From Suipraeoptans intestinalis (GTDB lineage: Bacteria; Bacillota; Clostridia; Lachnospirales; Lachnospiraceae): a stretch of 64,000 nucleotides of DNA. This document shows, piece after piece, positions 692 through 51,728 of the stretch (position 1 is the stretch's first letter; every line of letters starts with the position of its first letter). The notes below the pieces were generated by a model. That model was given only the letters and a program-made list of their open reading frames with translations, was not told where the DNA came from and did not search any database. A program made the position numbers and the translations under genes. The stretch is taken from contig NZ_VULY01000018.1 in NCBI RefSeq assembly GCF_009696485.1, positions 2,157,906 through 2,221,905 of the forward strand, written 5' to 3'.

Positions 692-958
692 ATAGACAAA
701 ACCGATGAGAAAGAGTAGTAGCTTTTCAGGCGATATTTCAGAGAGTGGCAGATGGTGGGATTGCCATATAGAACTGATCAGTGAATGGACTTTCGAGGGC
801 AGCCTGAAATGAAAAGAGTAGGAGCTGTCGGGAACCGAACCCGTTATCAATCAGGAGTGTATGTCAGTACACAAGAAGAGTGGACAGTCGTCAATTTGAG
901 TGGCACCGCGATAATGTGAATTACCGCCTCAAACTATCAGTTTGGGGCGGATTTTTTT
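692..958 (+). promoter_or_regulatory. T-box riboswitch leader controlling the downstream ABC transporter operon
   Basis: Stem-I k-turn-like GATGAGAAAGAGTA (698-711); AG-bulge/distal elements CAGAGAGTGG...GGTGGGA; T-box antiterminator motif TGAGTGGCACCGCG (897-910); intrinsic terminator CCGCCTCAAAC-tatcag-GTTTGGGGCGG + TTTTTTT (924-958) directly before the RBS of the gene starting at 1060. Confidence 0.7.
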
Positions 959-36812: not shown

Positions 36813-37910
36813 TCAGGCATATTGGGCAAACAGTCTTTGAAAAAATTCCAGCAGCCGCTGATCTTCCTGTGGCAGGCGGTAGCAGAAGCGGACATATTCT
36901 CCCTTTAGCCCTGCAAAAGAAGAGCAGTCCCGGATCAGAAATCCTTCCCGGATGGCGGCCTCAAAGACCTGCGGGGAAGTCGGGCCGCGCAGGATCTGCA
37001 CCAGCTGGAAGTTGGCAAAGGAAGGATATAGTTTCAGAGCGGGAATGGTAGACAGCGCTTTCTGGCAGCGCAGGCGTTCCTGCCGGATCAGTTCCTTCGT
37101 CTGTTGGATGTAGTCGGTATCCTGAAACAGCCGTTCTCCGGCAAAGGCTGCGATGCTGTTTAGGCTCCAGGGATTCTGAAGCTTCTGCAGATGGGCCAGG
37201 AAGTGCCGACTGCCGGTGACGCCGTAGCCCAGACGCAGGCCGGGTGCGGCGAAAAACTTGGAAACACCCCGGATGACCATCAGGTTGTCATAGCGCGTTG
37301 TCAGAGAAACAGAGGAAATGTTGTCCGCAGGGGCGAACTCCACATAGGTTTCATCGATCATCACATAGATGTTTCTGGCTTTGCAGAAGCGTATGATCTC
37401 TTCCATCTCGTCCAGGCAGATGGCGGAGGAGGTGGGATTGTTGGGGTTACAAAGGATCAGAAGGGAGATGGTTTCATCCAGCGCCTGAAGAAAATGAGGA
37501 AGATTCAGGCGAAAATCATCCTCTCTGCGAAGGAAATAAGAAACCTTGCCGCAGCCGTTCAGGGAAAGCTCCCGTTCGTATTCCGAATAGGACGGAGAAA
37601 GGAGCAATGCCCTTTTCCGGGCGTACAGTCGGATAAACAAAGAGATCAGCTCTGTAGATCCGTTGCCGATGGCGACGGAAGAGGGGGAAACATCCAGATA
37701 CTGCCCGATGGCCTCTTTCAGAGCCGTATAATTCCGGTCCGGGTATCTGGTGACAACATCCAGATGAGCTGCCAGCTCCTGACGGACGGCAGGGGAAAAT
37801 CCCAGAGGATTTACGTTGTCGGCAAAGGGAAGGATGGACTCGGGAGGGATCCGGTAAAAAGCGGATATTTCTTCCAGATCACTTCCGTGAAAGGTGGTTG
37901 TTTTTGTCAT
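36813..37910 (-). CDS. PLP-dependent aminotransferase, HisC/CobD family (possible threonine-phosphate decarboxylase)
   Basis: Class II aminotransferase fold with N-terminus HGSDLEEISAFYRIP...FADNVNPLGFSP (CobD-like HGG.../ANINP pattern) and a GVSKFFAAPGLRLGY PLP-lysine region. Confidence 0.7.
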   Translation of the reverse strand: MTKTTTFHGSDLEEISAFYRIPPESILPFADNVNPLGFSPAVRQELAAHLDVVTRYPDRNYTALKEAIGQYLDVSPSSVAIGNGSTELISLFIRLYARKRALLLSPSYSEYERELSLNGCGKVSYFLRREDDFRLNLPHFLQALDETISLLILCNPNNPTSSAICLDEMEEIIRFCKARNIYVMIDETYVEFAPADNISSVSLTTRYDNLMVIRGVSKFFAAPGLRLGYGVTGSRHFLAHLQKLQNPWSLNSIAAFAGERLFQDTDYIQQTKELIRQERLRCQKALSTIPALKLYPSFANFQLVQILRGPTSPQVFEAAIREGFLIRDCSSFAGLKGEYVRFCYRLPQEDQRLLEFFQRLFAQYA

Positions 37911-38039
37911 ATATAGGGTCCTCCTGTCATTGTGTTCAAGATTTTGTGTCTATTCCATTGCTATTTTCCTTAGAGTGATGATATAATTTATTATAATTAT
38001 GCGTGTAGAAAAAAGCAATGGAAGAAGCAGGTGTGAAAG

Positions 38040-41000
38040 TTGAAGAATAAGATTCAAAAATTTTCAAAAGGGGATTTTCAGGAATCCAGGACACAGGTGG
38101 TGCTGGATGAGACCAATCTGGTTTTGATCATCGGAGAGGGAGAAGTCTATCGGGGGAGTTTTACAATCCGGACCAATGGAAAGGGAACGGTAAGAGGGCT
38201 GGTCTATCCCTCTTCTTTTCGCGTCAGTTTCAAGGACCAGGGATTTGAAGGCAATCCGGCCAGGGTCGAGTTTACCTACGACGGAAGAGGACTGCGCCCC
38301 GGACATGTGGAGGAAGGAAAGTTTACGGTGGTCTGCAATGGAGGAGAGCTGGATCTGGCCTTTACGGCGATCATCGAAAAGCCTTATGTGATGACCTCCT
38401 ACGGCAAAGTCCAGAGTACGGATGATTTTCGGAAACTTGCCATTAAGGATTTTTCGGAAGCGGTGCGGCTTTTCCGCTCCAGAGAATTTTATGAGATCTT
38501 AAAATACGAAAACGAACGGATTTTTCACCTGTATGACAATATGAGAAAATGGTCCCTGGGAGAACAGGCGATGGAGGAGTTTCTGGTGGGGATCAAGCAG
38601 AAGGAGTGTATCTTCCTGACCATGCAGGGAGACGGGATGCTGTTTGAAGACATCCAGGAGCCTACCAAGGGGACACTGACTCTGATGAAGAATACCTGGG
38701 GATTCATGCCGGTCAGGATCGAGACGGAAGGGGAGTTTCTACGGGTTTCCCGCACGCAGTTAAGTACCGATGATTTTGTAGGAAATGTGTACGAGGTAGA
38801 ATATGTGGTGCGTCCGGAAAAGCTGCACGGAGGCCGGAACTTTGGCATGCTGAAGTTTGTCACGCCCTACGAGGAGCTGACCTACCAGGTGGAAGTGCTT
38901 CAGAATCAGGAATATCATGACGATCATGGGATCGCGGAGCTTTTGAAGGCGCAGATCCTGAAAGAATATATCGGATATGTTGCAGGCAGAAATGAACTGG
39001 GACGATGGGTGGACAGCGCCACGGAAAAGATGACGGCGCTGCGAAAGATAGACCCTCTGAATGAAATGTACCAGCTGATGCAGGCGCATGTGTACCTGTT
39101 CGGCAACAAGGTGGAGGAAGCAAAGTGGATCCTTGAGAATTATAACTACAACCGTTTTGCCATCGGAAAGGATCCGGTCACCAATTGCTACTATCTGTTT
39201 TTGACGGCGATGGTCAGGGGAAAGGGCAATCATGTGGAGCGGGTGCTGGACGAGATCGGGAAGACCTACATGAAGCATCAGGATTCCTGGTTTTTGCTGT
39301 TTATGATCATGAAGCTGGATCCCCGCTACAAAAACCCGTACAAACGGATCGAAGTGCTGGAACAGCAGTTTCAGTATGGAATCAACGAAGCGTTGTTTCT
39401 GCTGGAATCCTACCTGTGCTACCAGGAGAAGCCGATCCTGCTGAAAAAACTGGGACGGTTTGAGATCCAGGTACTGAATTTTGCGTCCAAATACCGGCTG
39501 ATGACCAGGGAACTGGCGCTGTATGTGGCCAATTTTGCCAGCCAGCAGAAGCAGTACAGTGACGAGATGTTCCGGATCCTGGAGCGTATCTACAAAATGT
39601 ACAGTGAGCCGATGATCTTAAACACCATCAGCACCTTCCTGATGAAGGGAGATAAAAAAGAGCAGAGGTATTTTGGCTGGTATCAGAAAGCGGTGGAGGC
39701 GAAGCTGAAGATCGCAAGGCTGTATGAATATTACATGATGACGATCCGGGAAGATGTGGTAAGAGGGCCTCTTCCCAAGGAGATCCTCCTTTACTTTATG
39801 CACGGGAATTCCCTGGACTACAGAAAGGCGGCTCTTTTATATACCAACCTGGTGACCTACGAGGAACAGGCGGGAGATTTGTACCTGGCTTACCGGGAGC
39901 AGATGGTGGCTTTTACCTGGGAGCAGTTGGAGAAGCGTCATATCACAGAATCCCTTCGGGTTTTGTATAAGCGCTTTTGCCGGGAGGAAGAGATGACGCC
40001 GGAGAGGATGGAGGCGATGCGGGATATCTGCTATTCCTACGAGATCACTACCAGGGTGCCCAATATGAAGTGCGTGCTGGTGATCGAAAAGGACGGAAGC
40101 ATCCGACAGCGGATCCCCTATACGGAAGAGGGAACCATCGTCCGCTTGTACGACAAGGAGTCCAGAGTGGTGTGGGAGTCGGTGGAAGGCCGCTATTACA
40201 CAGACTCGGTGGCTTATGAGACGAAACGCCTCTTTTATGAACCGAGGTTTCTGGAAATGTGCCGCAACTATGAGGGCGGCACAGGGGCGTGGAAACAGGA
40301 GCAGAAAAAAGAAGAGCCTACGTTTGAGAACATTCATCAGAAAGGACTGGATGCCTTCGATGAAAAGGATGTATTTATCCTCTGCAGCAAACGGATCCGG
40401 GAAGACAACTACGAAGAAGATGACTTCCTGAGCCATCTTTGTTTTGAACTGTTTAAGCGGGGACAGTACGATAAAGTCACCCTCACCTACCTGGCAAGTT
40501 ACTACTGCGGAGCAACTTCGGACATGAAGCGTCTGTGGAAGGCTCTGAAGGAGTATGAAGTGCCTGCCCATAAGGTGGGAGAACGGATCATTACCCAGAT
40601 GGTCTTTTCGGAAAACCTGTTCGGGGAAGAAAAGATCTTTGAGGATTATTATCTGACGGATATGGTATATTTCCGATTAAAGCAGGCGTACCTGGCCTAT
40701 GTTGCTAGAGAATACATTTTGTACGAGAGAGAACTGGAAGAAAGCGTGTTCCAGATCATTGGGAACGAGTGCGAGAAAAAGGAAGATCTGCCGGATGTAT
40801 GCAAAATTGCCCTTCTGAAGTTCTACGCCGGAAAAAGCTGTTCCTCCGACATGGAGGCGGTGCTGCACCAGGCGCTGCGGGAGATGTGTGAAAAGCAGAT
40901 CGTATTCCCCTTTTACTTTCAGTACCGGGAAGAGTGGCTGCGGGAGGTGCTGTTGTACGATAAGGTGCTGCTGTCCTACCGGGGCAGACCGGGCAGCAGC

Positions 41001-41330
41001 GTGGTGCTGTATCACAAGAGCAAGGAGGCCGGGAAGGAAGAGCTGGGCTATCGGTCAGAAGCCATGATCTCTGCCTACGAAAACATCTATGTAAAACGGT
41101 TTGTATTGTTCCAGGACGAGGCGGTGCATTACTACATACAGGAAACGGACGGAGATCAGATCCTCACCACGGATAAGCATGTTTTGACGGGAGAGGCCAA
41201 CCGTACCGTTTCCGGAAAATACGGAAGACTGAACCAGATGACAGAAATGGAAGGCGGAAATCTGCTGAGAGCCATGCAGGCGTATGCGGAAGAGGAAGAG
41301 ATGGCAAAGAAGCTGTTCCATAAATACTAA
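38040..41330 (+). CDS. Large (1096 aa) uncharacterized multidomain protein: two N-terminal about 90-aa repeat (beta-rich) modules plus an about 800-aa alpha-helical/TPR-like body
   Basis: Long ORF with TTG start after AGGTG; internal repeat (res. about 25-115 vs about 205-290: both G.G..(Y/L)RG.F.I/V.T.G.G....V). No Walker A, HD, PD-(D/E)xK, DEAD or other catalytic motif recognisable by eye. Confidence 0.6.
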   Translation: MKNKIQKFSKGDFQESRTQVVLDETNLVLIIGEGEVYRGSFTIRTNGKGTVRGLVYPSSFRVSFKDQGFEGNPARVEFTYDGRGLRPGHVEEGKFTVVCNGGELDLAFTAIIEKPYVMTSYGKVQSTDDFRKLAIKDFSEAVRLFRSREFYEILKYENERIFHLYDNMRKWSLGEQAMEEFLVGIKQKECIFLTMQGDGMLFEDIQEPTKGTLTLMKNTWGFMPVRIETEGEFLRVSRTQLSTDDFVGNVYEVEYVVRPEKLHGGRNFGMLKFVTPYEELTYQVEVLQNQEYHDDHGIAELLKAQILKEYIGYVAGRNELGRWVDSATEKMTALRKIDPLNEMYQLMQAHVYLFGNKVEEAKWILENYNYNRFAIGKDPVTNCYYLFLTAMVRGKGNHVERVLDEIGKTYMKHQDSWFLLFMIMKLDPRYKNPYKRIEVLEQQFQYGINEALFLLESYLCYQEKPILLKKLGRFEIQVLNFASKYRLMTRELALYVANFASQQKQYSDEMFRILERIYKMYSEPMILNTISTFLMKGDKKEQRYFGWYQKAVEAKLKIARLYEYYMMTIREDVVRGPLPKEILLYFMHGNSLDYRKAALLYTNLVTYEEQAGDLYLAYREQMVAFTWEQLEKRHITESLRVLYKRFCREEEMTPERMEAMRDICYSYEITTRVPNMKCVLVIEKDGSIRQRIPYTEEGTIVRLYDKESRVVWESVEGRYYTDSVAYETKRLFYEPRFLEMCRNYEGGTGAWKQEQKKEEPTFENIHQKGLDAFDEKDVFILCSKRIREDNYEEDDFLSHLCFELFKRGQYDKVTLTYLASYYCGATSDMKRLWKALKEYEVPAHKVGERIITQMVFSENLFGEEKIFEDYYLTDMVYFRLKQAYLAYVAREYILYERELEESVFQIIGNECEKKEDLPDVCKIALLKFYAGKSCSSDMEAVLHQALREMCEKQIVFPFYFQYREEWLREVLLYDKVLLSYRGRPGSSVVLYHKSKEAGKEELGYRSEAMISAYENIYVKRFVLFQDEAVHYYIQETDGDQILTTDKHVLTGEANRTVSGKYGRLNQMTEMEGGNLLRAMQAYAEEEEMAKKLFHKY

Positions 41331-41345
41331 AAAGGAGGATGTGCG

Positions 41346-42629
41346 GTGAGAAAGGGCGGTATTCTTGGCTATGACTTAAACGATAAGTATTGCCAGATCA
41401 GCTATTATGACGAATCAAAGGAAGAACCACAGACACTGGAATCCTCCGGAGAAAACTACCAGATCCCCATGATGATCGGATATGTGCGGGAGCACTGGGT
41501 CTATGGCAGGGAAGCGAAAAAGTACAGCGTTATCAATGAAGGTCATATCGTATCGGGAATTTTTGAGAAGGCGGTCAAGCGGGAAAAGGTTATGATCGGC
41601 GGAAAGAGCTTTGACGGAGTGTGGCTGTTGGCCAGATTCATCCGACTGAGCCTGCAGGAATTTGACTCCATCGATTTCATCACATTTTCCGTTCCCTATA
41701 CGGATATCGACATGTCCAAAATGCTAAAAGGCATCGGACAGCATATTGGCGTGGAGAAGGATAGGATCTTTATAGAAGACTATAAGGAAAGCTATTGCAA
41801 CTATATGTTTTATCAGCCAAAGGAGCTGTGGCAGTACGAATCGGCTCTGTTTTACTGCGATGCAAGAGAGATCCGCGCCTACATGCTGAGAAAGCTGAAC
41901 GCCATCAGCGGAAGAGGAAACGACAGATTCGTGACGGTGGATGAGGTGGCAAATGCCAGGATCCAGGAGTTGTCGGCTATCTACCCGGTTTTAAATGTGG
42001 ACCGGGCAAAGGATGCAGACGAAAAGTTTAAGGGGTTTATCGAAAATATTTTTGAGAAAAAGGTGGTTTCTTCCGTGTATCTTACGGGGGAAGGATTTGA
42101 AAACAGCTGGTATCCCAATTCTTTGAAGATTCTTTGCAACGGAAGGCGGGCATTTATCGGGAATAACCTGTACAGCAAGGGCGCCTGCTATCACTCCATG
42201 AAGAAACTGAGAGGATATGAGGAGGGGCCGATCTATCTGGATGAATCCAAGATGGCGGAGCAGATCTGTCTCCGGATGCGGGTGAGAGGACAGGAAAGAT
42301 GGTATCCCATCGTAGCATGGGGAACCCACTGGTACGAAGCGGACGGCGAATGGGAAGTTCTTTTGGAGGATGCTTCGGACATTGAGATCCGTGTGGAGAC
42401 GCTGGCAGGCAGCGAGGTGCAGATGGAGCGGGTATCCCTGTCGGGACTGCCTTCCAGAAGGGACTACTCTTTGAGGCTTCGGATCGAAGTGATGTTTTTG
42501 GATGAGAGGACCTGCAAGATCATCTTCCGGGATGCGGGGTTTGGAGAATTCTTCCCCGCCACGGATTTTTATGCAGAGAAGCTGTTGAATTTAGGAGGGA
42601 TCAATGGGCAGTTTAATTCTATGTCATAG
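41346..42629 (+). CDS. Degenerate Hsp70/actin-fold (ASKHA-like) protein, truncated after the NBD-SBD linker
   Basis: GILGYDLNDKYCQISYY aligns with the Hsp70 phosphate-1 IGIDLGTTNSCVAV; VYLTGEGFENSW with the phosphate-2/adenosine VLVGGSTRIP; C-terminal LRLRIEVMFLDERTCKIIFRDAGFG resembles the Hsp70 linker/first SBD strands (IEVTFDIDANGIL.V.A.D..TG). GTG start 8 nt after AAGGAGG, 16 nt after the upstream stop. Confidence 0.55.
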   Translation: MRKGGILGYDLNDKYCQISYYDESKEEPQTLESSGENYQIPMMIGYVREHWVYGREAKKYSVINEGHIVSGIFEKAVKREKVMIGGKSFDGVWLLARFIRLSLQEFDSIDFITFSVPYTDIDMSKMLKGIGQHIGVEKDRIFIEDYKESYCNYMFYQPKELWQYESALFYCDAREIRAYMLRKLNAISGRGNDRFVTVDEVANARIQELSAIYPVLNVDRAKDADEKFKGFIENIFEKKVVSSVYLTGEGFENSWYPNSLKILCNGRRAFIGNNLYSKGACYHSMKKLRGYEEGPIYLDESKMAEQICLRMRVRGQERWYPIVAWGTHWYEADGEWEVLLEDASDIEIRVETLAGSEVQMERVSLSGLPSRRDYSLRLRIEVMFLDERTCKIIFRDAGFGEFFPATDFYAEKLLNLGGINGQFNSMS

Positions 42630-43386
42630 GCAAAAAGCAAAGCAACCATATGAGATCGCCAGGGTCCATGTACGGGTCTATACCATAGAGGAACTTTGCT
42701 ATTACATCTGCAACAACCTGTATCTCATTGATTATACCCTGATGAATCGAAGGCTTTGCAGATGGTTTGAAACAGAACTGGGACTTTTGGAGCTGGCAAA
42801 AAAGCTGCGGGAAGCGCTGGATGAAAACTGTTCGCTGGAACAGTTTGTGATGATGATCCTGAAAGAATCCTGCATTTATCTTCCGGCTGATCTGAACCGG
42901 ATCCAGGGGATCCTGGAGCATCTGCAGTCCCAGAAGGAAGTGGAAAGGGCCAAGCACAAGGCGGACAGCCTTTGGGAAGGCGGAGAATACGAGGCTTCGA
43001 TCCTGGTGTATCAGACCATTGTGGATGGCGAATGGGATGATTCTCTGGATAAGAGCTTTTACGGAAAAGTGTACGCCTGCCTGGGGGCGGCTTACGGCAG
43101 GCTGTTTTTGTACAAAGAAGCAATCCGTATGTATGAAGAGGCCTGCAGGCTGTGTGAAGAACCGGAATTTTTAAAAGCATACCTGTATTGCTGTAAAAGA
43201 GGGCGGTCCGAGGCGGAGTATGTCAAGATGCTTTCGGGCAATCCGGCATTTTTAAGCCTGGACTCTGTCCTGAAAGAGGAATTAAAGCAGATTTCGGTGG
43301 AAAGTGAACCGGTCTGCACACAGGAGCAGTTGACACTCTGGAAAAAAGACTACAAAAAGGTTGACAATCATTCCGAAGCGTGTTAG
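42604..43386 (+). CDS. TPR-like helical repeat protein
   Basis: Start overlaps the upstream gene by 26 nt with RBS GGAGGG; helical repeats fitting the TPR consensus (YGKVYACLGAAYGRLFLYKEAIRMYEEACRL). Confidence 0.55.
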   Translation: MGSLILCHRQKAKQPYEIARVHVRVYTIEELCYYICNNLYLIDYTLMNRRLCRWFETELGLLELAKKLREALDENCSLEQFVMMILKESCIYLPADLNRIQGILEHLQSQKEVERAKHKADSLWEGGEYEASILVYQTIVDGEWDDSLDKSFYGKVYACLGAAYGRLFLYKEAIRMYEEACRLCEEPEFLKAYLYCCKRGRSEAEYVKMLSGNPAFLSLDSVLKEELKQISVESEPVCTQEQLTLWKKDYKKVDNHSEAC

Positions 43387-43487
43387 TATGACAAAGTAAT
43401 TTAGCAAGGTAAAGTAGTCAATTATTAGCAAGGTAGCATAATGACGAAACGAAAGCATACCGACGGAACAGATTTGGAGGAATGGTT

Positions 43488-44309
43488 ATGAAGAGGAAAC
43501 TGGCAGTTGTATTGGCACTGACGATGGCGGCAGCAGTGGTATTGGCAGGCTGCGGCAGCAATAAGAAAGAAACAAAGAAGGAAAGCAAGGCAGAATTTGC
43601 AGCCAAGGAAAAAGGGGATACCTTTACAGTAGGGTTCGATCAGGATTTCCCGCCTATGGGCTTTGTGGGGGATGATGGGGAATATACAGGATTTGACCTG
43701 GAGGTGGCAAAGGCTGTGTGTGAAAAACTGGGCCTGAAATTTGTACCCAAGCCTATTGCCTGGGATGCAAAGGATGCAGAGCTGAAATCCGGCGGGATCG
43801 ACTGTGTATGGAACGGATTTACCATCAATGGAAGAGAAGACGATTATACCTGGAGCAAGCCGTATCTGAATAACAAGCAGGTGTTTGTGGTCAGGAAGGA
43901 CTCCGGGATCAAGACGGAGAAGGATCTGGCAGGGAAGGTGGTAGACGTACAGACGGACTCTTCTGCCCAGGTAGCGCTGGAAGACAACAAAGAACTGACA
44001 GACACCTTTGGAAATCTGCAGGTGGTTGCGGATTATAATACCGGCTTTATGGATCTGGAATCCGGCGCAGTGGATGCGGTTGCCATGGATATTGTGGTGG
44101 CGGCTTACCAGATTGAAAAAAGAGAAGCAGAGTTTGAAATTCTGGATTACGAGATCGCTTCCGAGGAGTACGGAGTGGGATTTGCAAAAGGAAATGAAGC
44201 CCTGCGTGACCAGATCCAGAAGGCGCTGGAAGAGCTGGCAGATGAAGGGACACTGGCACAGATCTCCGAAAAGTGGTTCCAGAAAGATATTACAACGATC
44301 AATCAATAA
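43488..44309 (+). CDS. Polar amino acid ABC transporter substrate-binding lipoprotein (family 3 SBP)
   Basis: Signal peptide with LAGCGS lipobox; FDQDFPPMGF...AWDAKDAELKSGGIDCVWNGFTI type-3 SBP motifs. Confidence 0.9.
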   Translation: MKRKLAVVLALTMAAAVVLAGCGSNKKETKKESKAEFAAKEKGDTFTVGFDQDFPPMGFVGDDGEYTGFDLEVAKAVCEKLGLKFVPKPIAWDAKDAELKSGGIDCVWNGFTINGREDDYTWSKPYLNNKQVFVVRKDSGIKTEKDLAGKVVDVQTDSSAQVALEDNKELTDTFGNLQVVADYNTGFMDLESGAVDAVAMDIVVAAYQIEKREAEFEILDYEIASEEYGVGFAKGNEALRDQIQKALEELADEGTLAQISEKWFQKDITTINQ

Positions 44310-44381
44310 GCTTAGGGGAAGCGAAACAGGTGAGCTGTCCGAAAGATGGCTCGCCTTTCGTTTCGTAGGAAGGAGTAAGTT

Positions 44382-45032
44382 ATGTCCGTTTCAGTCATGA
44401 TTCATAAATTGATGGAGGGCATGCTGGTGTCGCTGGCAATCTTTGCCGTTACACTGGTGTTTTCTTTGCCGCTGGGACTTTTGGTGTCCTTTGGAAGGAT
44501 GTCCAGAAATCCGGTGGTCCGGGGTGTATTTAAAATTTATATTTCCATTATGCGGGGAACGCCTCTGATGCTCCAGCTGATGGTCATTTATTTTGGACCC
44601 TACTATCTGCTGGGGATCCAAAACAGCTACACCTGGAAAAACATGGCGGTGGCAGTGGGCTTTGTGCTGAACTATGCAGCATATTTTGCGGAGATCTACC
44701 GGGGCGGGATCGAATCGATGCCAAAGGGACAGTATGAGGCGGCAAAGATCCTGGGCTATAACAGCAGCCAGACATTTCTTCGGATCATTCTTCCCCAGGT
44801 AATGAAAAGGATCCTTCCTTCCATCACAAACGAAACGATCACGCTGGTCAAGGACACCTCTTTGGCCTTTACCATCGGCATCATGGAGATGTTCACCATT
44901 GCCAAGGCACTGGCAGCGTCCCAGACCACCATGCTTCCGTATCTGTTTGCAGGGATCTTCTATTATGTGTTTAATTTTGTAGTAGCATTCCTGATGGAAA
45001 CCATCGAAAAGAAAATGAACTATTACAGTTAG
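44382..45032 (+). CDS. Amino acid ABC transporter permease (HisM/GlnP type)
   Basis: EAA-loop-containing permease (AAKILGYNSSQTFLRIILPQ). Confidence 0.9.
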   Translation: MSVSVMIHKLMEGMLVSLAIFAVTLVFSLPLGLLVSFGRMSRNPVVRGVFKIYISIMRGTPLMLQLMVIYFGPYYLLGIQNSYTWKNMAVAVGFVLNYAAYFAEIYRGGIESMPKGQYEAAKILGYNSSQTFLRIILPQVMKRILPSITNETITLVKDTSLAFTIGIMEMFTIAKALAASQTTMLPYLFAGIFYYVFNFVVAFLMETIEKKMNYYS

Positions 45033-45043
45033 GGGGGAATCAG

Positions 45044-45733
45044 ATGAACTTATTGGAAATGCGTCATATCAGAAAAAGCTTTGACGGTGTGGAAGTGTTG
45101 AAAGATATCTCCCTGACGGTGAAGGAGGGAGAGGTATTGGGGATCATCGGACCCTCCGGCTCCGGGAAATCCACGCTGCTTCGCTGCGCGACAAAGCTGG
45201 AGACTTACGACGCCGGAGAAGTGACATACGGAGGAAGCGTGGGCCTGGTCTTCCAGAATTTTAATCTTTTTCCACATTTTTCAGTGCTGAAGAATATCAT
45301 GGATGCACCTATACGGGTACAGAAGAGGAACCGGGCGGAGGTAAAACAGGAGGCGGAGGAGCTTCTGGAAAAAATGGGTCTGAAAGACAAGGCGAACGCC
45401 TATCCTTGCCAGCTGTCAGGCGGACAGCAGCAGAGGGTATCTATCGCGCGGGCTTTGGCTATGAAGCCGGACATCCTGTTTTTTGACGAGCCGACTTCTG
45501 CTTTGGATCCGGAGCTGACAGGCGAGATCCTGAAGGTGATCCGGCAGCTGGCGCAGGAGAAGATGACCATGGTGATCGTGACGCATGAGATGGATTTTGC
45601 AAAACATGTTTCGGATCACATTATTTTCATGGAAGAAGGATATATTGCCCTGGAAGGAAGCCCGGAGGAGGTTTTTGAGTCTTCTAATGCCAGGATTCAG
45701 GAGTTTTTAGGGAGGTTTTCCAAGAACCGGTAG
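45044..45733 (+). CDS. Amino acid ABC transporter ATP-binding protein
   Basis: Walker A GPSGSGKST, Q-loop, LSGGQQQRVSIARAL, Walker B ILFFDEPTSALD, H-loop VTHEM. Confidence 0.95.
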   Translation: MNLLEMRHIRKSFDGVEVLKDISLTVKEGEVLGIIGPSGSGKSTLLRCATKLETYDAGEVTYGGSVGLVFQNFNLFPHFSVLKNIMDAPIRVQKRNRAEVKQEAEELLEKMGLKDKANAYPCQLSGGQQQRVSIARALAMKPDILFFDEPTSALDPELTGEILKVIRQLAQEKMTMVIVTHEMDFAKHVSDHIIFMEEGYIALEGSPEEVFESSNARIQEFLGRFSKNR

Positions 45734-48135: not shown

Positions 48136-48317
48136 CTGAAAAATGAAGTCAATCCAGAAAGTTTCACAAAAAAACTGACAGGAAACTGTGCAAAAAAGAC
48201 AAATTAAAGCGATTGGTTTTTGGGGCTTGAAAAATAAATAACAATGGATTATTATTGACGTATGCAATAGTTATTTATAAATAAAACCTATAATACATAT
48301 AAAAATGGAGCGGGTTG

Positions 48318-48525
48318 AGATTTTTCTGGAGAGAACTTTTAAAGTCGCCGAAGAGGCAAGCTTGTAAACGGATCGTATTTACAAAGTGAAACTTTCAGGC
48401 AAAAGGACAGAGAAATGGACTGCATTCTGGATATTGTACTGTGCGACTGAAGATAGTGAAGGCAGGACAAAAGACAGGAAGGGCGAGATACACAAGGTGT
48501 ATGTTCGTCCTTTTTCTTATTCTGT
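48318..48525 (+). promoter_or_regulatory. Glycine riboswitch (well-conserved aptamer 1, degenerate aptamer-2-like segment) with terminator-type expression platform, upstream of grdX
   Basis: Aptamer 1 (48318-48412): CTGGAGAG...CGCCGAAGAGGCAA...CTTTCAGGCAAAAGGACAGAG matches the glycine-riboswitch consensus (GGAGAG / GCACCGAAGGAGCAA / CTCTCAGGCAAAAGGACAG). A second, weaker copy (ACTGTGCGACTGAAGATAG...TGAAGGCAGGACAAAAGACAGG). Then hairpin GGGCGAGATACACA...TGTATGTTCGTCC + TTTTTCTTATT (48481-48521). Confidence 0.65.
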
Positions 48526-49055: not shown

Positions 49056-49123
49056 CAGGAACCAATCGGTTGCAGAGCGTTTCGCTATGACAATACACAT
49101 TTCATATGAAGGAGGAATTTACA

Positions 49124-50404
49124 GTGAGATTAGAAATGGGACACATTTACATCAAGGATGTTCAATTCGCTTCAGAATCCAAGATTGAAGACGGAATCCT
49201 TTATGTATCCGAAGAGGAAGTGCGCAAAGTGGCAATGGAGGATGACAAGATCAAAAAAGTATCCTTTGACATTGCAAAACCGGGAGAGTCTGTAAGAATC
49301 ACACCGGTAAAGGACGTAATCGAGCCGCGTGTAAAAGTGGAAGGACGCGGAGGGATCTTCCCGGGCGTGATCGCAAAAGTGGACACGGTAGGAGAGGGAA
49401 AAACCTATGCACTAAAAGGAATGGCTGTAGTGACAGCAGGCCCCATTGTAGGATTTCAGGAAGGGATCATTGATATGACGGGACCGGGCGCCGACTATAC
49501 TCCGTTCTCCCAGACATTGAACCTGGTAATGGTATGTGAGCCGGTGGACGACATTAAGCCTCATGATTATGAAAAGGCAGTAAGATTTGCAGGGTTCCGT
49601 GTAGCTGTTTATCTGGGAGAGCTGGCAAGAAACCTGACTCCGGATGAGACAAAGGTATATGAGACATGCACCATCAAGGAAGGAATGACCCAGTATCCGG
49701 AGCTTCCCAGAGTGGCTTATGTGCAGATGCTTCAGAGCCAGGGACTGCTTCACGACACCTATGTATACGGAGTGGACGCAAAGAAGATCGTGCCGACCAT
49801 CATGAGCCCGACAGAGATCATGGACGGAGCCATCGTATCAGGAAACTGTGTTTCTGCATGCGACAAAAATCCTACCTATGTACACCTGAACAACCCGGTA
49901 GTACACGACCTGTTTGAACAGCACGGAAAGACCATCAATTTTGTGTGTCAGATCATCACCAATGAAAATGTGTATCTGGCAGACAAGCAGCGCTCTTCCG
50001 ACTGGACGGCAAAGCTTTGCAAGATGCTGGATCTGGACGGAGTGATCGTATCACAGGAAGGATTTGGAAATCCGGATACCGACCTGATCATGAACTGCAA
50101 GAAGATCGAGGCAGAAGGGGTTAAGACAGTCATCATCACAGATGAATACGCAGGACGCGACGGAAAATCCCAGTCTCTGGCAGATGCAGATGCAGCGGCA
50201 GACGCAGTGGTAACAGGCGGTAATGCAAATCAGGTGATCATCCTGCCGAAGCTGGACAAGGTGATCGGAACGATGGAGTATGTAACGAAGATCGCAGGAG
50301 CCAGCGATGAAACACTTCGTGAAGATGGATCTTTAGAGGTAGAGCTTCAGGTGTTGACTGGTGCTACGAACGAAACCGGATTCAACAAGCTGAGTGCAAG
50401 ATAA
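49124..50404 (+). CDS. grdE: Glycine reductase protein B proprotein GrdE (component B alpha/beta subunits)
   Basis: Starts MRLEMGHIYIKDVQF (GTG 49124, 7 nt after AAGGAGG), matching the GrdE N-terminus; conserved PrdA/GrdE proprotein body; the ORF track's upstream ATG 49106 has no RBS. Confidence 0.85.
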   Translation: MRLEMGHIYIKDVQFASESKIEDGILYVSEEEVRKVAMEDDKIKKVSFDIAKPGESVRITPVKDVIEPRVKVEGRGGIFPGVIAKVDTVGEGKTYALKGMAVVTAGPIVGFQEGIIDMTGPGADYTPFSQTLNLVMVCEPVDDIKPHDYEKAVRFAGFRVAVYLGELARNLTPDETKVYETCTIKEGMTQYPELPRVAYVQMLQSQGLLHDTYVYGVDAKKIVPTIMSPTEIMDGAIVSGNCVSACDKNPTYVHLNNPVVHDLFEQHGKTINFVCQIITNENVYLADKQRSSDWTAKLCKMLDLDGVIVSQEGFGNPDTDLIMNCKKIEAEGVKTVIITDEYAGRDGKSQSLADADAAADAVVTGGNANQVIILPKLDKVIGTMEYVTKIAGASDETLREDGSLEVELQVLTGATNETGFNKLSAR

Positions 50405-50417
50405 GGAGGACAGTACG

Positions 50418-51728
50418 ATGGCAAAATTAAGAGTGGTTCATTACATCAATCAGTTCTTTGCTCAGATTGGTGGAGAAGAAAAAGCGGATTATCCTGCAGA
50501 GATTCGTGTGGGAGAAGTAGTAGGACCGGGTGTGGCATTTGCGGCATCCTTTGGAGAAGAGGCAGAGATCGTTGCGACCATCATCTGTGGAGACTCTTAC
50601 TTCAATGAAAATCTGGAAAAAGCAAAGGCAGACATCCTGGCGATGGTAAAAGAGCAGGCTCCGGATGTATTTATCGCAGGACCGGCATTTAACGCAGGAC
50701 GTTACGGTGTTGCATGCGGAACTATCGCAGCGGCTGTTCAGGAAGAACTGGGTATCCCGTCCCTGACAGGTATGTATGTGGAAAATCCGGGTGCGGACAT
50801 GTTCAAGAACCAGGTATATATGGTTTCAACCAAGAACAATGCGGCAGGTATGAGAGACGCGGTGAAGAAGATGGCGCCGTTGGCTCTGAAGCTGGCGAAA
50901 AAAGAGCAGATCGGAGCTTCGGCAGAGGAAGGATACATGCCAAACGGCGTGCGTGTCAACTTCTTTGAGAAAGAAAGAGGATCTAAGAGAGCGGTAAAAA
51001 TGCTGCTGAACAAGCTGGCTGACAAACCGTTTGTAACAGAATTCCCCATGCCTGACTTTGACAGGGTAGAGCCCAATCCGGCCGTGAAGGATCTGGCACA
51101 CGCTAAGATCGCTATCGTGACTTCCGGAGGTATCGTTCCAAAAGGAAATCCGGATCACATTGAAAGCTCCAGTGCTTCCCGCTACGGCGAGTATGATATT
51201 ACCGGAGTAAATGATCTGACAGAGGAAACCTATGAGACGGCTCACGGCGGATATGATCCGATTTATGCAAATGAGGATTCAGACCGTGTTATCCCGGTGG
51301 ACGTGCTTCGAGATATGGAAAGAGAAGGCGTGATCGGAGAGCTGCATCACCTGTTCTATACCACGACAGGAAACGGAACGGCTGTTGCATCTTCCAAAGC
51401 GTTTGCAGCAGAATTTTCCCAGAAACTGAAAGCAGACGGAGTAGACGCTGTGATTCTCACTTCTACATGAGGAACCTGTACTCGTTGCGGTGCAACGATG
51501 GTGAAAGAAGTGGAGAGAGCAGGAATCCCGGTGGTACACATCTGTACCGTTACACCGATTTCCATGACAGTTGGAGCAAACAGGATCGTTCCGGCTATCG
51601 CGATTCCTCACCCGCTGGGAAATCCGGCACTGGATAAGGCGGAAGAAAAAGTGCTTCGTCGTCATATTGTAGAAAAAGCATTAGAGGCTTTGACGACAGA
51701 AGTAGACGGACAGACTATTTTTGATTAA
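50418..51728 (+). CDS. grdB: Glycine/sarcosine/betaine reductase selenoprotein B (GrdB family) with in-frame UGA (selenocysteine) at 51468-51470
   Basis: ORFs 50394..51470 and 51498..51728 are in the same frame, separated only by TGA; read-through gives ...DAVILTST-U-GTCTRCGATMVKEVERAG..., the GrdB UxxC active-site context; a stem-loop (TCGTTGC-GGT-GCAACGA, 51483-51499) lies about 12 nt downstream of the UGA as expected for a bacterial SECIS. Confidence 0.85.
51483..51499 (+). other. Candidate SECIS hairpin for grdB UGA decoding
   Basis: 7-bp perfect stem with GGU apical loop starting 12 nt 3' of the UGA. Confidence 0.4.

Follow-up and report, generated by a model that had tools for sequence, protein, structure and literature searches.

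A stretch of 64,000 nucleotides from Suipraeoptans intestinalis (contig NZ_VULY01000018.1, positions 2,157,906 to 2,221,905 of the forward strand; called the window below, with positions counted from its first letter) contains an operon whose middle gene encodes a lidless Hsp70 paralogue, built from a nucleotide-binding domain (NBD), a linker and the beta part of a substrate-binding domain (SBD-beta). The genes are labelled A, B, C and, in some other lineages, D, in operon order. In the window there are three of them, all open reading frames on the forward strand: gene A at 38040-41330 (1096 aa, TTG start), gene B at 41346-42629 (427 aa, GTG start) and gene C at 42604-43386 (260 aa, ATG start). 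The catalytic site of B is degenerate throughout its family, the gene order is kept over long evolutionary distances, and B and C are fused in several lineages. We judge the chances to be about even that A, B and C are subunits of one cytoplasmic, non-enzymatic housekeeping complex, in which B would act as a clamp in the manner of Ssz1. Homologous loci carry L-numbers and proteins P-numbers in what follows.

The relationship of B to Hsp70 emerges at the level of family profiles and of structure prediction. Single-sequence searches of the PDB with B gave nothing useful, and the Pfam HSP70 model had no match in B at E <= 1. When a profile built from 122 diverse members of the family was compared with the PDB, DnaK was the sole match (E 6.4e-5). 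The N-terminal ~200 residues of B align to DnaK 4-186 with GYDLND opposite GIDLGTT, an alignment on which the profile and hhalign agree. A second, weak stretch of the profile match places 'LSGLPSRRDYSLRLRIEVMF' of B opposite 'LDGINPAPRGMPQIEVTF' of DnaK, and 'DAGFGE' opposite 'DKGTGK', in the strands of SBD-beta; by hhalign, residues 302-409 of B are co-linear with DnaK 394-508 (104 columns, E 0.0096). The predicted structure is one confident unit (predicted template-modelling score, pTM, 0.92), and its best fold matches are Ssz1, Sse1 and BiP-ATP, that is, atypical or ATP-state Hsp70s, with lower Z for the actin-like filament proteins ParM, MreB and FtsA. B thus has an ASKHA-type NBD nearest to those of Hsp70s, followed by a hydrophobic linker and SBD-beta, in the same order as in DnaK. 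The Hsp70-type, reduced NBD covers aa 1-295 (41346-42230, +), and the linker-like 'PIYLDE' together with the SBD-beta sandwich covers aa 296-416 (42231-42593, +; SBD-beta itself ~aa 304-416), with a conserved 'DxGFGE' loop at aa 396-401. After this the model has one short helix (aa 418-426) and no alpha-helical lid (SBD-alpha), and most homologs stop straight after the last beta strand. The NBD is ~90 residues shorter than that of DnaK. By the map of secondary structure, strands 195-205 and 241-247 are separated by only ~36 residues, where DnaK has subdomain IIB, most of which is apparently lost from the modelled domain. A first-pass annotation, made from the sequence alone, had already recognised the Hsp70/actin-type NBD with GYDLND in place of GIDLGTT, and profile, hhalign and fold comparison all agree with it. 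It also held that the protein ends where the substrate-binding domain would start, which is wrong since B carries SBD-beta, and it took 'IEV.F.D' for a linker-like segment, while this is an SBD-beta strand motif equivalent to a strand of DnaK.

Statistics for the catalytic site were taken from the alignment columns of the 122 family sequences, mapped via the DnaK alignment, and on this basis the site is degenerate across the family. At the position of DnaK K70 the residue is D, E, S or T, with no conserved Lys, that of E171 is mostly Q, I or L, and the equivalents of T11 and T12 are lost. The Gly-rich phosphate-2 loop (GGGT; DnaK G196-T199) is replaced by variable charged residues, and the D194 equivalent, D or E in 84 members, is Tyr in B of the window. 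Other parts of the site are kept: G8 is conserved, the D8 equivalent (D10 in B) is retained in 121/122 sequences (D in 100, E in 21), G248 is invariant, position 250 is Gly in 85/122 and F251 is near-invariant. These last residues lie at the expected place of the adenosine motif in the fold. The proposal that LTGEGFE corresponds to LVGGSTR of Hsp70 fits by position in the fold only, the hhalign alignment of lobe II with DnaK falling short of significance (E 0.32). The losses at the K70, E171, T199 and Gly-loop equivalents across the family support the earlier suggestion of substituted catalytic residues in a pseudo- or non-canonical ATPase.

All three genes are, by their pattern of substitutions, real and under strong purifying selection (dN 0.17-0.33 versus relatives with dS saturated; dN/dS ~0.05-0.19 where computable). 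B is represented by 1,132 clusters at 50% identity in a representative library, and a word-indexed search with A gave >700 matches; a second word-indexed search with A and a metagenome scan returned close relatives only. In Pfam, aa 1-773 of A belong to DUF5717_N (E 6.6e-207, 689.7 bits) and aa 794-1093 to the C-terminal DUF5717 model (E 3.9e-95, 319 bits; cut-off 25 in both cases), while aa 112-414 of B belong to DUF5716_C (E 2.9e-100, 335.5 bits, cut-off 34.7). The accessions are PF18984 and PF18983 for DUF5717 and PF18980 for DUF5716. For C there are only sub-threshold matches to tetratricopeptide repeat (TPR) models. An NCBIfam scan of the three proteins found nothing, PADLOC models had no match to them at E <= 1, and a full-text literature search for DUF5716, DUF5717 and the accessions gave nothing relevant, and a wider one on atypical Hsp70s was uninformative. 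Given the family membership and the lack of relevant literature, A and B can be described as catalogued but uncharacterised. The first-pass annotation was right that no characterised system fits and that the genes are uncharacterised, although it missed that two of them already belong to Pfam families.

A, B and C occur in the same order in 86 of the 87 loci that have enough flanking sequence on either side. Close relatives are collinear over the whole neighbourhood, which leaves the distant loci as the informative ones; there B is 40% (L126), 35% (L129), 33% (L130), 31% (L127) or 26% (L043 and L040) identical to B of the window. In all of these, as in the fusion loci L038 and L131, A lies immediately upstream of B and C immediately downstream. 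The flanks differ: the module lies between RarA and ValRS in L040 and L132, HtpG and PfkB are upstream in L130, and other loci have a divergent aminotransferase gene and/or purine genes. Conserved synteny, which had been proposed as a check, is therefore found down to 26% identity and in differing neighbourhoods.

In addition, B and C are joined into single proteins of 703-737 aa in seven distinct 50%-identity clusters (P0161, P0168, P0218, P0241, P0254, P0258 and P0266), with fusion genes at L038:3637-5787 and L131:10001-12109; the fusion P0398 is found on eight contigs, including one of 482 kb. Seven fusion clusters constitute Rosetta-stone evidence of a direct functional link between B and C. 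The earlier description of a trio with B and C as separate genes is correct for the window and overlooked these fusions in other lineages. It also missed a fourth gene, D (~390-410 aa), which directly follows C in some lineages, namely L038 (5794-6987), L043 (8091-9317), L127/L128 (L127:12219-13448), L130 (12203-13435), L132 (11002-12177) and L133 (4222-5385), and is homologous across them. Its product is a coiled coil in which two hydrophobic segments resembling transmembrane helices are embedded, with neither a Pfam family nor a relative in the PDB. The 64-kb window has no homolog of D. The four lineages with D that were examined for it (L038, L043, L127, L130) all have an insertion of ~79 aa in A. 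In L129 the gene directly after C is a different one: its product, a surface adhesin of 2,323 aa, has 15 SpaA/prealbumin-like repeats (L129:12140-19108), and the gene is probably an unrelated insertion.

Protein C begins with a conserved N-terminal module, continues with a TPR region and ends in a tail that is variable. The N-terminal module (aa 1-95; 42604-42888, +) is without a family, having no match in Pfam or the PDB, and in an alignment of 12 divergent homologs its E29, E30 and L68 are invariant and C7, P15, Y26, Y33, N38 and R69 near-invariant. For the TPR domain (aa 113-237; 42940-43314, +; about three repeats) the assignment is solid at the level of the family profile, which matches the consensus TPR protein CTPR3 in the PDB with E 7.8e-13, and the original description of C as TPR-like can be extended to a true TPR domain. 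Among natural proteins the matches (E 1.6e-7 to 5e-5) are RapF (1.6e-7), Sti1 (6e-7), HOP (2.6e-6) and CHIP (5e-5, spanning aa 111-237 of C), as well as CDC27, SGTA, OGT and BBS4. C thus resembles the co-chaperones Sti1/HOP, CHIP and SGTA (E 6e-7 to 5e-5) and, like them, partners an Hsp70-like protein. The co-chaperone flavour of its TPR domain is not specific, however, as unrelated TPR proteins match equally well, and the conserved N-terminal module is absent from those co-chaperones. Docking of C onto B in the style of Sti1 or CHIP, as had been suggested, is not borne out. B ends in '...GQFNSMS' and its family lacks an acidic or EEVD-like tail, and the position of the 'GN' clamp Asn is a near-invariant Asp in C (D121); we reject EEVD-type docking on these grounds. 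The idea that C is a detached Hsp70 lid was rejected at sequence level as well (C family compared with DnaK by hhalign, probability 0.1%).

For A, searches of the PDB with the single sequence and with a family profile gave no match, and its domain map comes from an AlphaFold model with a mean pLDDT (predicted local distance difference test) of 83.8 and a pTM of 0.45. In this model a first beta-sandwich (aa 20-124; 38097-38411, +), which is absent from homologs of 1014 aa, and a second one (aa 193-288; 38616-38903, +) are separated by a small helical bundle (aa 127-184; 38418-38591, +). These are followed by a TPR-like alpha-solenoid (aa 294-664; 38919-40031, +), a third beta domain (aa 666-730; 40035-40229, +) and a disordered linker (aa 745-757), which is where the longer homologs carry the ~79-aa insertion. 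The remainder, a second TPR-like alpha-solenoid within the C-terminal Pfam DUF5717 region (aa 762-969; 40323-40946, +) and a fourth beta-sandwich with a C-terminal hairpin (aa 976-1050 and aa 1060-1092; together 40965-41315, +), ends in a conserved helical hairpin that closes with an 'LF-x2-3' motif. Conservation is even over all domains. The first-pass annotation saw two N-terminal repeats of about 90 aa; self-BLAST of A finds no sequence repeat (best E 0.34), and in their place we find the two predicted beta-sandwiches flanking the helical bundle. Its statement that this giant protein has no enzymatic motif agrees with our results, as neither Pfam nor fold matches indicate an enzymatic domain. 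The structural matches of the beta domains are of the PapD/MSP/ASH kind, and for beta-sandwich 2 tandem ASH-like arrays match the SPD-2 domain of CEP192 and ciliary central-pair proteins. The likeness to Hydin, CFAP74, CEP192 and VAP, or to Naa15, CTR9 and IFT-A subunits on the solenoid side, is at the level of domains only (TM-scores 0.07-0.16). No solved structure has the architecture of A or its order of domains, and common ancestry is not implied. The FFAT motif (EFFDAxE) is the ligand of VAP MSP domains. With MSP-like domains in A, it was noticed that 'GEFFPATD' in B (aa 400-407; window 42543-42566), a strongly conserved SBD-beta loop, recalls this motif. The family consensus there is GE-[IFL]-F-P-[SA]-[ST]-G, and in the model this loop is well ordered (pLDDT ~97), so the likeness is probably a coincidence.

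All named sources of homologs are Lachnospiraceae (Dorea, Faecalicatena, Claveliimonas, Mordavella, Sporofaciens, Bariatricus and [Clostridium] hylemonae). Lachnospiraceae of this kind, among them Dorea, Faecalicatena, Sporofaciens and [Clostridium] hylemonae, occur commonly in gut samples from humans and animals. B had no match on plasmids. It did have five matches labelled 'Bacteriophage sp.', from UNVERIFIED gut contigs, of which two records were inspected (MT835486.1, locus L132, and MT835719.1, locus L133). There the module is surrounded by genes for RarA/MgsA, ValRS, a glycosyltransferase, FeoB and MCP, so these regions are bacterial chromosome and a phage origin was rejected for both records. 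In close relatives the flanks are collinear and contain housekeeping genes. The module is chromosomal, and the best reading is that it is vertically inherited and of a housekeeping rather than a mobile or defence nature.

How the proteins may work together can be outlined as follows. B would most likely be a rigid unit of NBD and SBD-beta that serves permanently as a clamp or adaptor instead of cycling as a chaperone does, because it has no lid and has lost the residues for ATP hydrolysis. The N-terminal module of C would bind B directly, leaving the TPR domain to recruit another peptide ligand, and A could serve as a ~125-kDa platform whose four beta domains and two TPR-like solenoids organise other proteins. 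In the lineages that have it, D would probably tether the complex to the membrane by way of its coiled coil and two putative transmembrane segments. Several points weigh against this picture. With G8, D10 and G248-x-G250 conserved, B may still be a slow or partner-activated ATPase, or may bind nucleotide and not hydrolyse it. Contacts of A with B and with C are presumed, operon membership fitting a subunit or a client alike, and the packing of the domains within A is uncertain given the pTM of 0.45. As D is absent from the window, membrane tethering would not be general, and the host range given here is that of the named Lachnospiraceae, the distant members coming from metagenome contigs. A wider claim, that A, B, C and where present D form an unrecognised, lineage-wide Lachnospiraceae machine, a cytoplasmic or membrane-tethered scaffold with a dead Hsp70 as permanent peptide clamp, is one we put forward only tentatively, and we think it somewhat less likely than the complex itself.

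The same evidence can be read in other ways. B might be an ATP-driven Hsp70 in a dedicated chaperone system, with C as co-chaperone, folding or assembling A or another client. The Hsp70 fold with SBD-beta, the conserved G8/D10 and GxG motifs, the appearance of Sti1, HOP, SGTA and CHIP among the profile matches of C, co-expression alongside the very large, multidomain A and, in one lineage, HtpG two genes upstream of A all agree with such a role. We nevertheless regard it as unlikely, since the K70, E171, T199 and Gly-loop equivalents are lost family-wide, the lid and apparently most of subdomain IIB are missing, the operon encodes no J-domain or GrpE-like partner, the EEVD tail on B and the clamp Asn in C (D121) are both lacking, and the TPR matches are generic, with OGT, CDC27 and Rap proteins scoring alike. 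The lack of a lid, the lost catalytic residues and the absence of a DnaJ or GrpE partner are also features by which B differs from DnaK, the protein that its family profile detects. Ssz1, which forms the ribosome-associated complex (RAC) with Zuo1 in yeast and other fungi (PDB 5mb9, 4gni), is the analogue for the clamp that we favour; its sequence identity to B is only 13-14%. B differs from it in being bacterial, in having a TPR protein rather than a J-protein as partner and in its smaller NBD (~295 aa).

A cytoskeletal role, in which B would polymerise like ParM, MreB or FtsA, A and C would act as its adaptors and D would anchor it to the membrane, would explain the coiled coil and transmembrane-like segments of D in some lineages, and would suit a conserved, housekeeping-like module. 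It is improbable all the same: the B profile matches DnaK only, actin-like filament proteins have no SBD-beta and a lower Z than Hsp70s, and B has lost the hydrolysis residues that drive filament dynamics. More improbable still, and in our view very unlikely, is a defence or conflict system related to CnuD of the McrBC-type CoCoNuT systems. CnuD units combine an Hsp70-like NBD/SBD with degenerate ATPase motifs and HEAT-like helical repeats (PMC11090510), and this domain logic, compared here by description, resembles that of B plus A. CnuD is found in McrBC-type defence loci, however, whereas the A-B-C module is vertically inherited, lies in no defence island and neither encodes nor adjoins McrB, McrC, a nuclease or any other effector domain. 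In particular, no McrB-like GTPase or McrC (DUF2357) was seen in the window, in the Pfam matches of A to C or in the precomputed Pfam families at 11 distant loci. The lack of PADLOC matches, the absence from plasmids, the bacterial-chromosome nature of the inspected 'phage' records and the stable synteny with housekeeping genes at low dN/dS also speak against it.

If B is indeed a clamp within a complex, it would be a bacterial case in which an Hsp70 has become a structural subunit, comparable to eukaryotic Ssz1, in a scaffold assembled from domains known best from eukaryotes (MSP/ASH sandwiches, TPR solenoids and an Ssz1-like pseudo-Hsp70). Such a scaffold might serve co-translational protein handling, the organisation of the envelope or division site, or the assembly of large structures. 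The domain types are all known and the families already exist as DUFs. As far as we searched, there is no earlier description of DUF5716 as a degenerate Hsp70 that lacks a lid, of how the domains of DUF5717 are arranged, of the obligatory DUF5717-DUF5716-TPR module (including the fusions and the optional membrane partner), or of this module as a conserved core gene set of gut Lachnospiraceae. Both DUFs gain a structural annotation and, together with a TPR family that had no assignment, can be treated as one unit. The module is under strong purifying selection in common gut bacteria, no relevant literature on it was found, and the lidless, catalytically degenerate B with its dedicated and sometimes fused TPR partner offers a testable entry point.

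The layout of the operon suggests translational coupling. Gene B has a GGAGG ribosome-binding site at 41334-41338 (+), 7 nt ahead of its GTG, and gene C has AGGAGG at 42593-42598 (+), within the 3' end of gene B and 5 nt ahead of its ATG. Both sites and the 26-nt overlap of B and C had been noted before, and 101 of 112 loci retain the overlap; the spacer between A and B is 15 nt and not 16. At 37958-37987 (+) there is a promoter-like site of the sigma-70 type, TTGCTA-18 nt-TATAAT, whose -10 element is extended by a TG; 10 of 12 positions match in a consensus scan. It agrees with the earlier proposal that the operon has its own promoter, divergent from an aminotransferase gene (36813-37910, -), although it is a consensus match only. 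A class I/II aminotransferase gene (Aminotran_1_2, ~365 aa) is also divergent to gene A in L043, L127, L129 and L131, and this arrangement persists even in lineages where A is only 25-31% identical. The pairing could be plain synteny or could reflect a common regulatory region. Rfam gave no regulatory RNA near the operon, and no convincing intrinsic terminator was found after gene C. A second promoter-like site (TTGACA-17-TAGTAT with TG; 43361-43389, +) overlaps the end of gene C and sits just upstream of amino-acid ABC transporter genes (43482-45733).

Elsewhere in the window, a T-box leader (Rfam RF00230, 105.7 bits) is found at 696-934 (+), upstream of open reading frames starting near 1011-1060. 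A glycine riboswitch aptamer (66.3 bits) at 48316-48420 (+) precedes open reading frames at 49106-51470; just past the frame ending at 51470 there is a bacterial SECIS element (SECIS_4, 64.1 bits; 51471-51508, +). Together, the riboswitch and the SECIS element suggest a glycine-regulated selenoprotein operon, for example one encoding glycine reductase.

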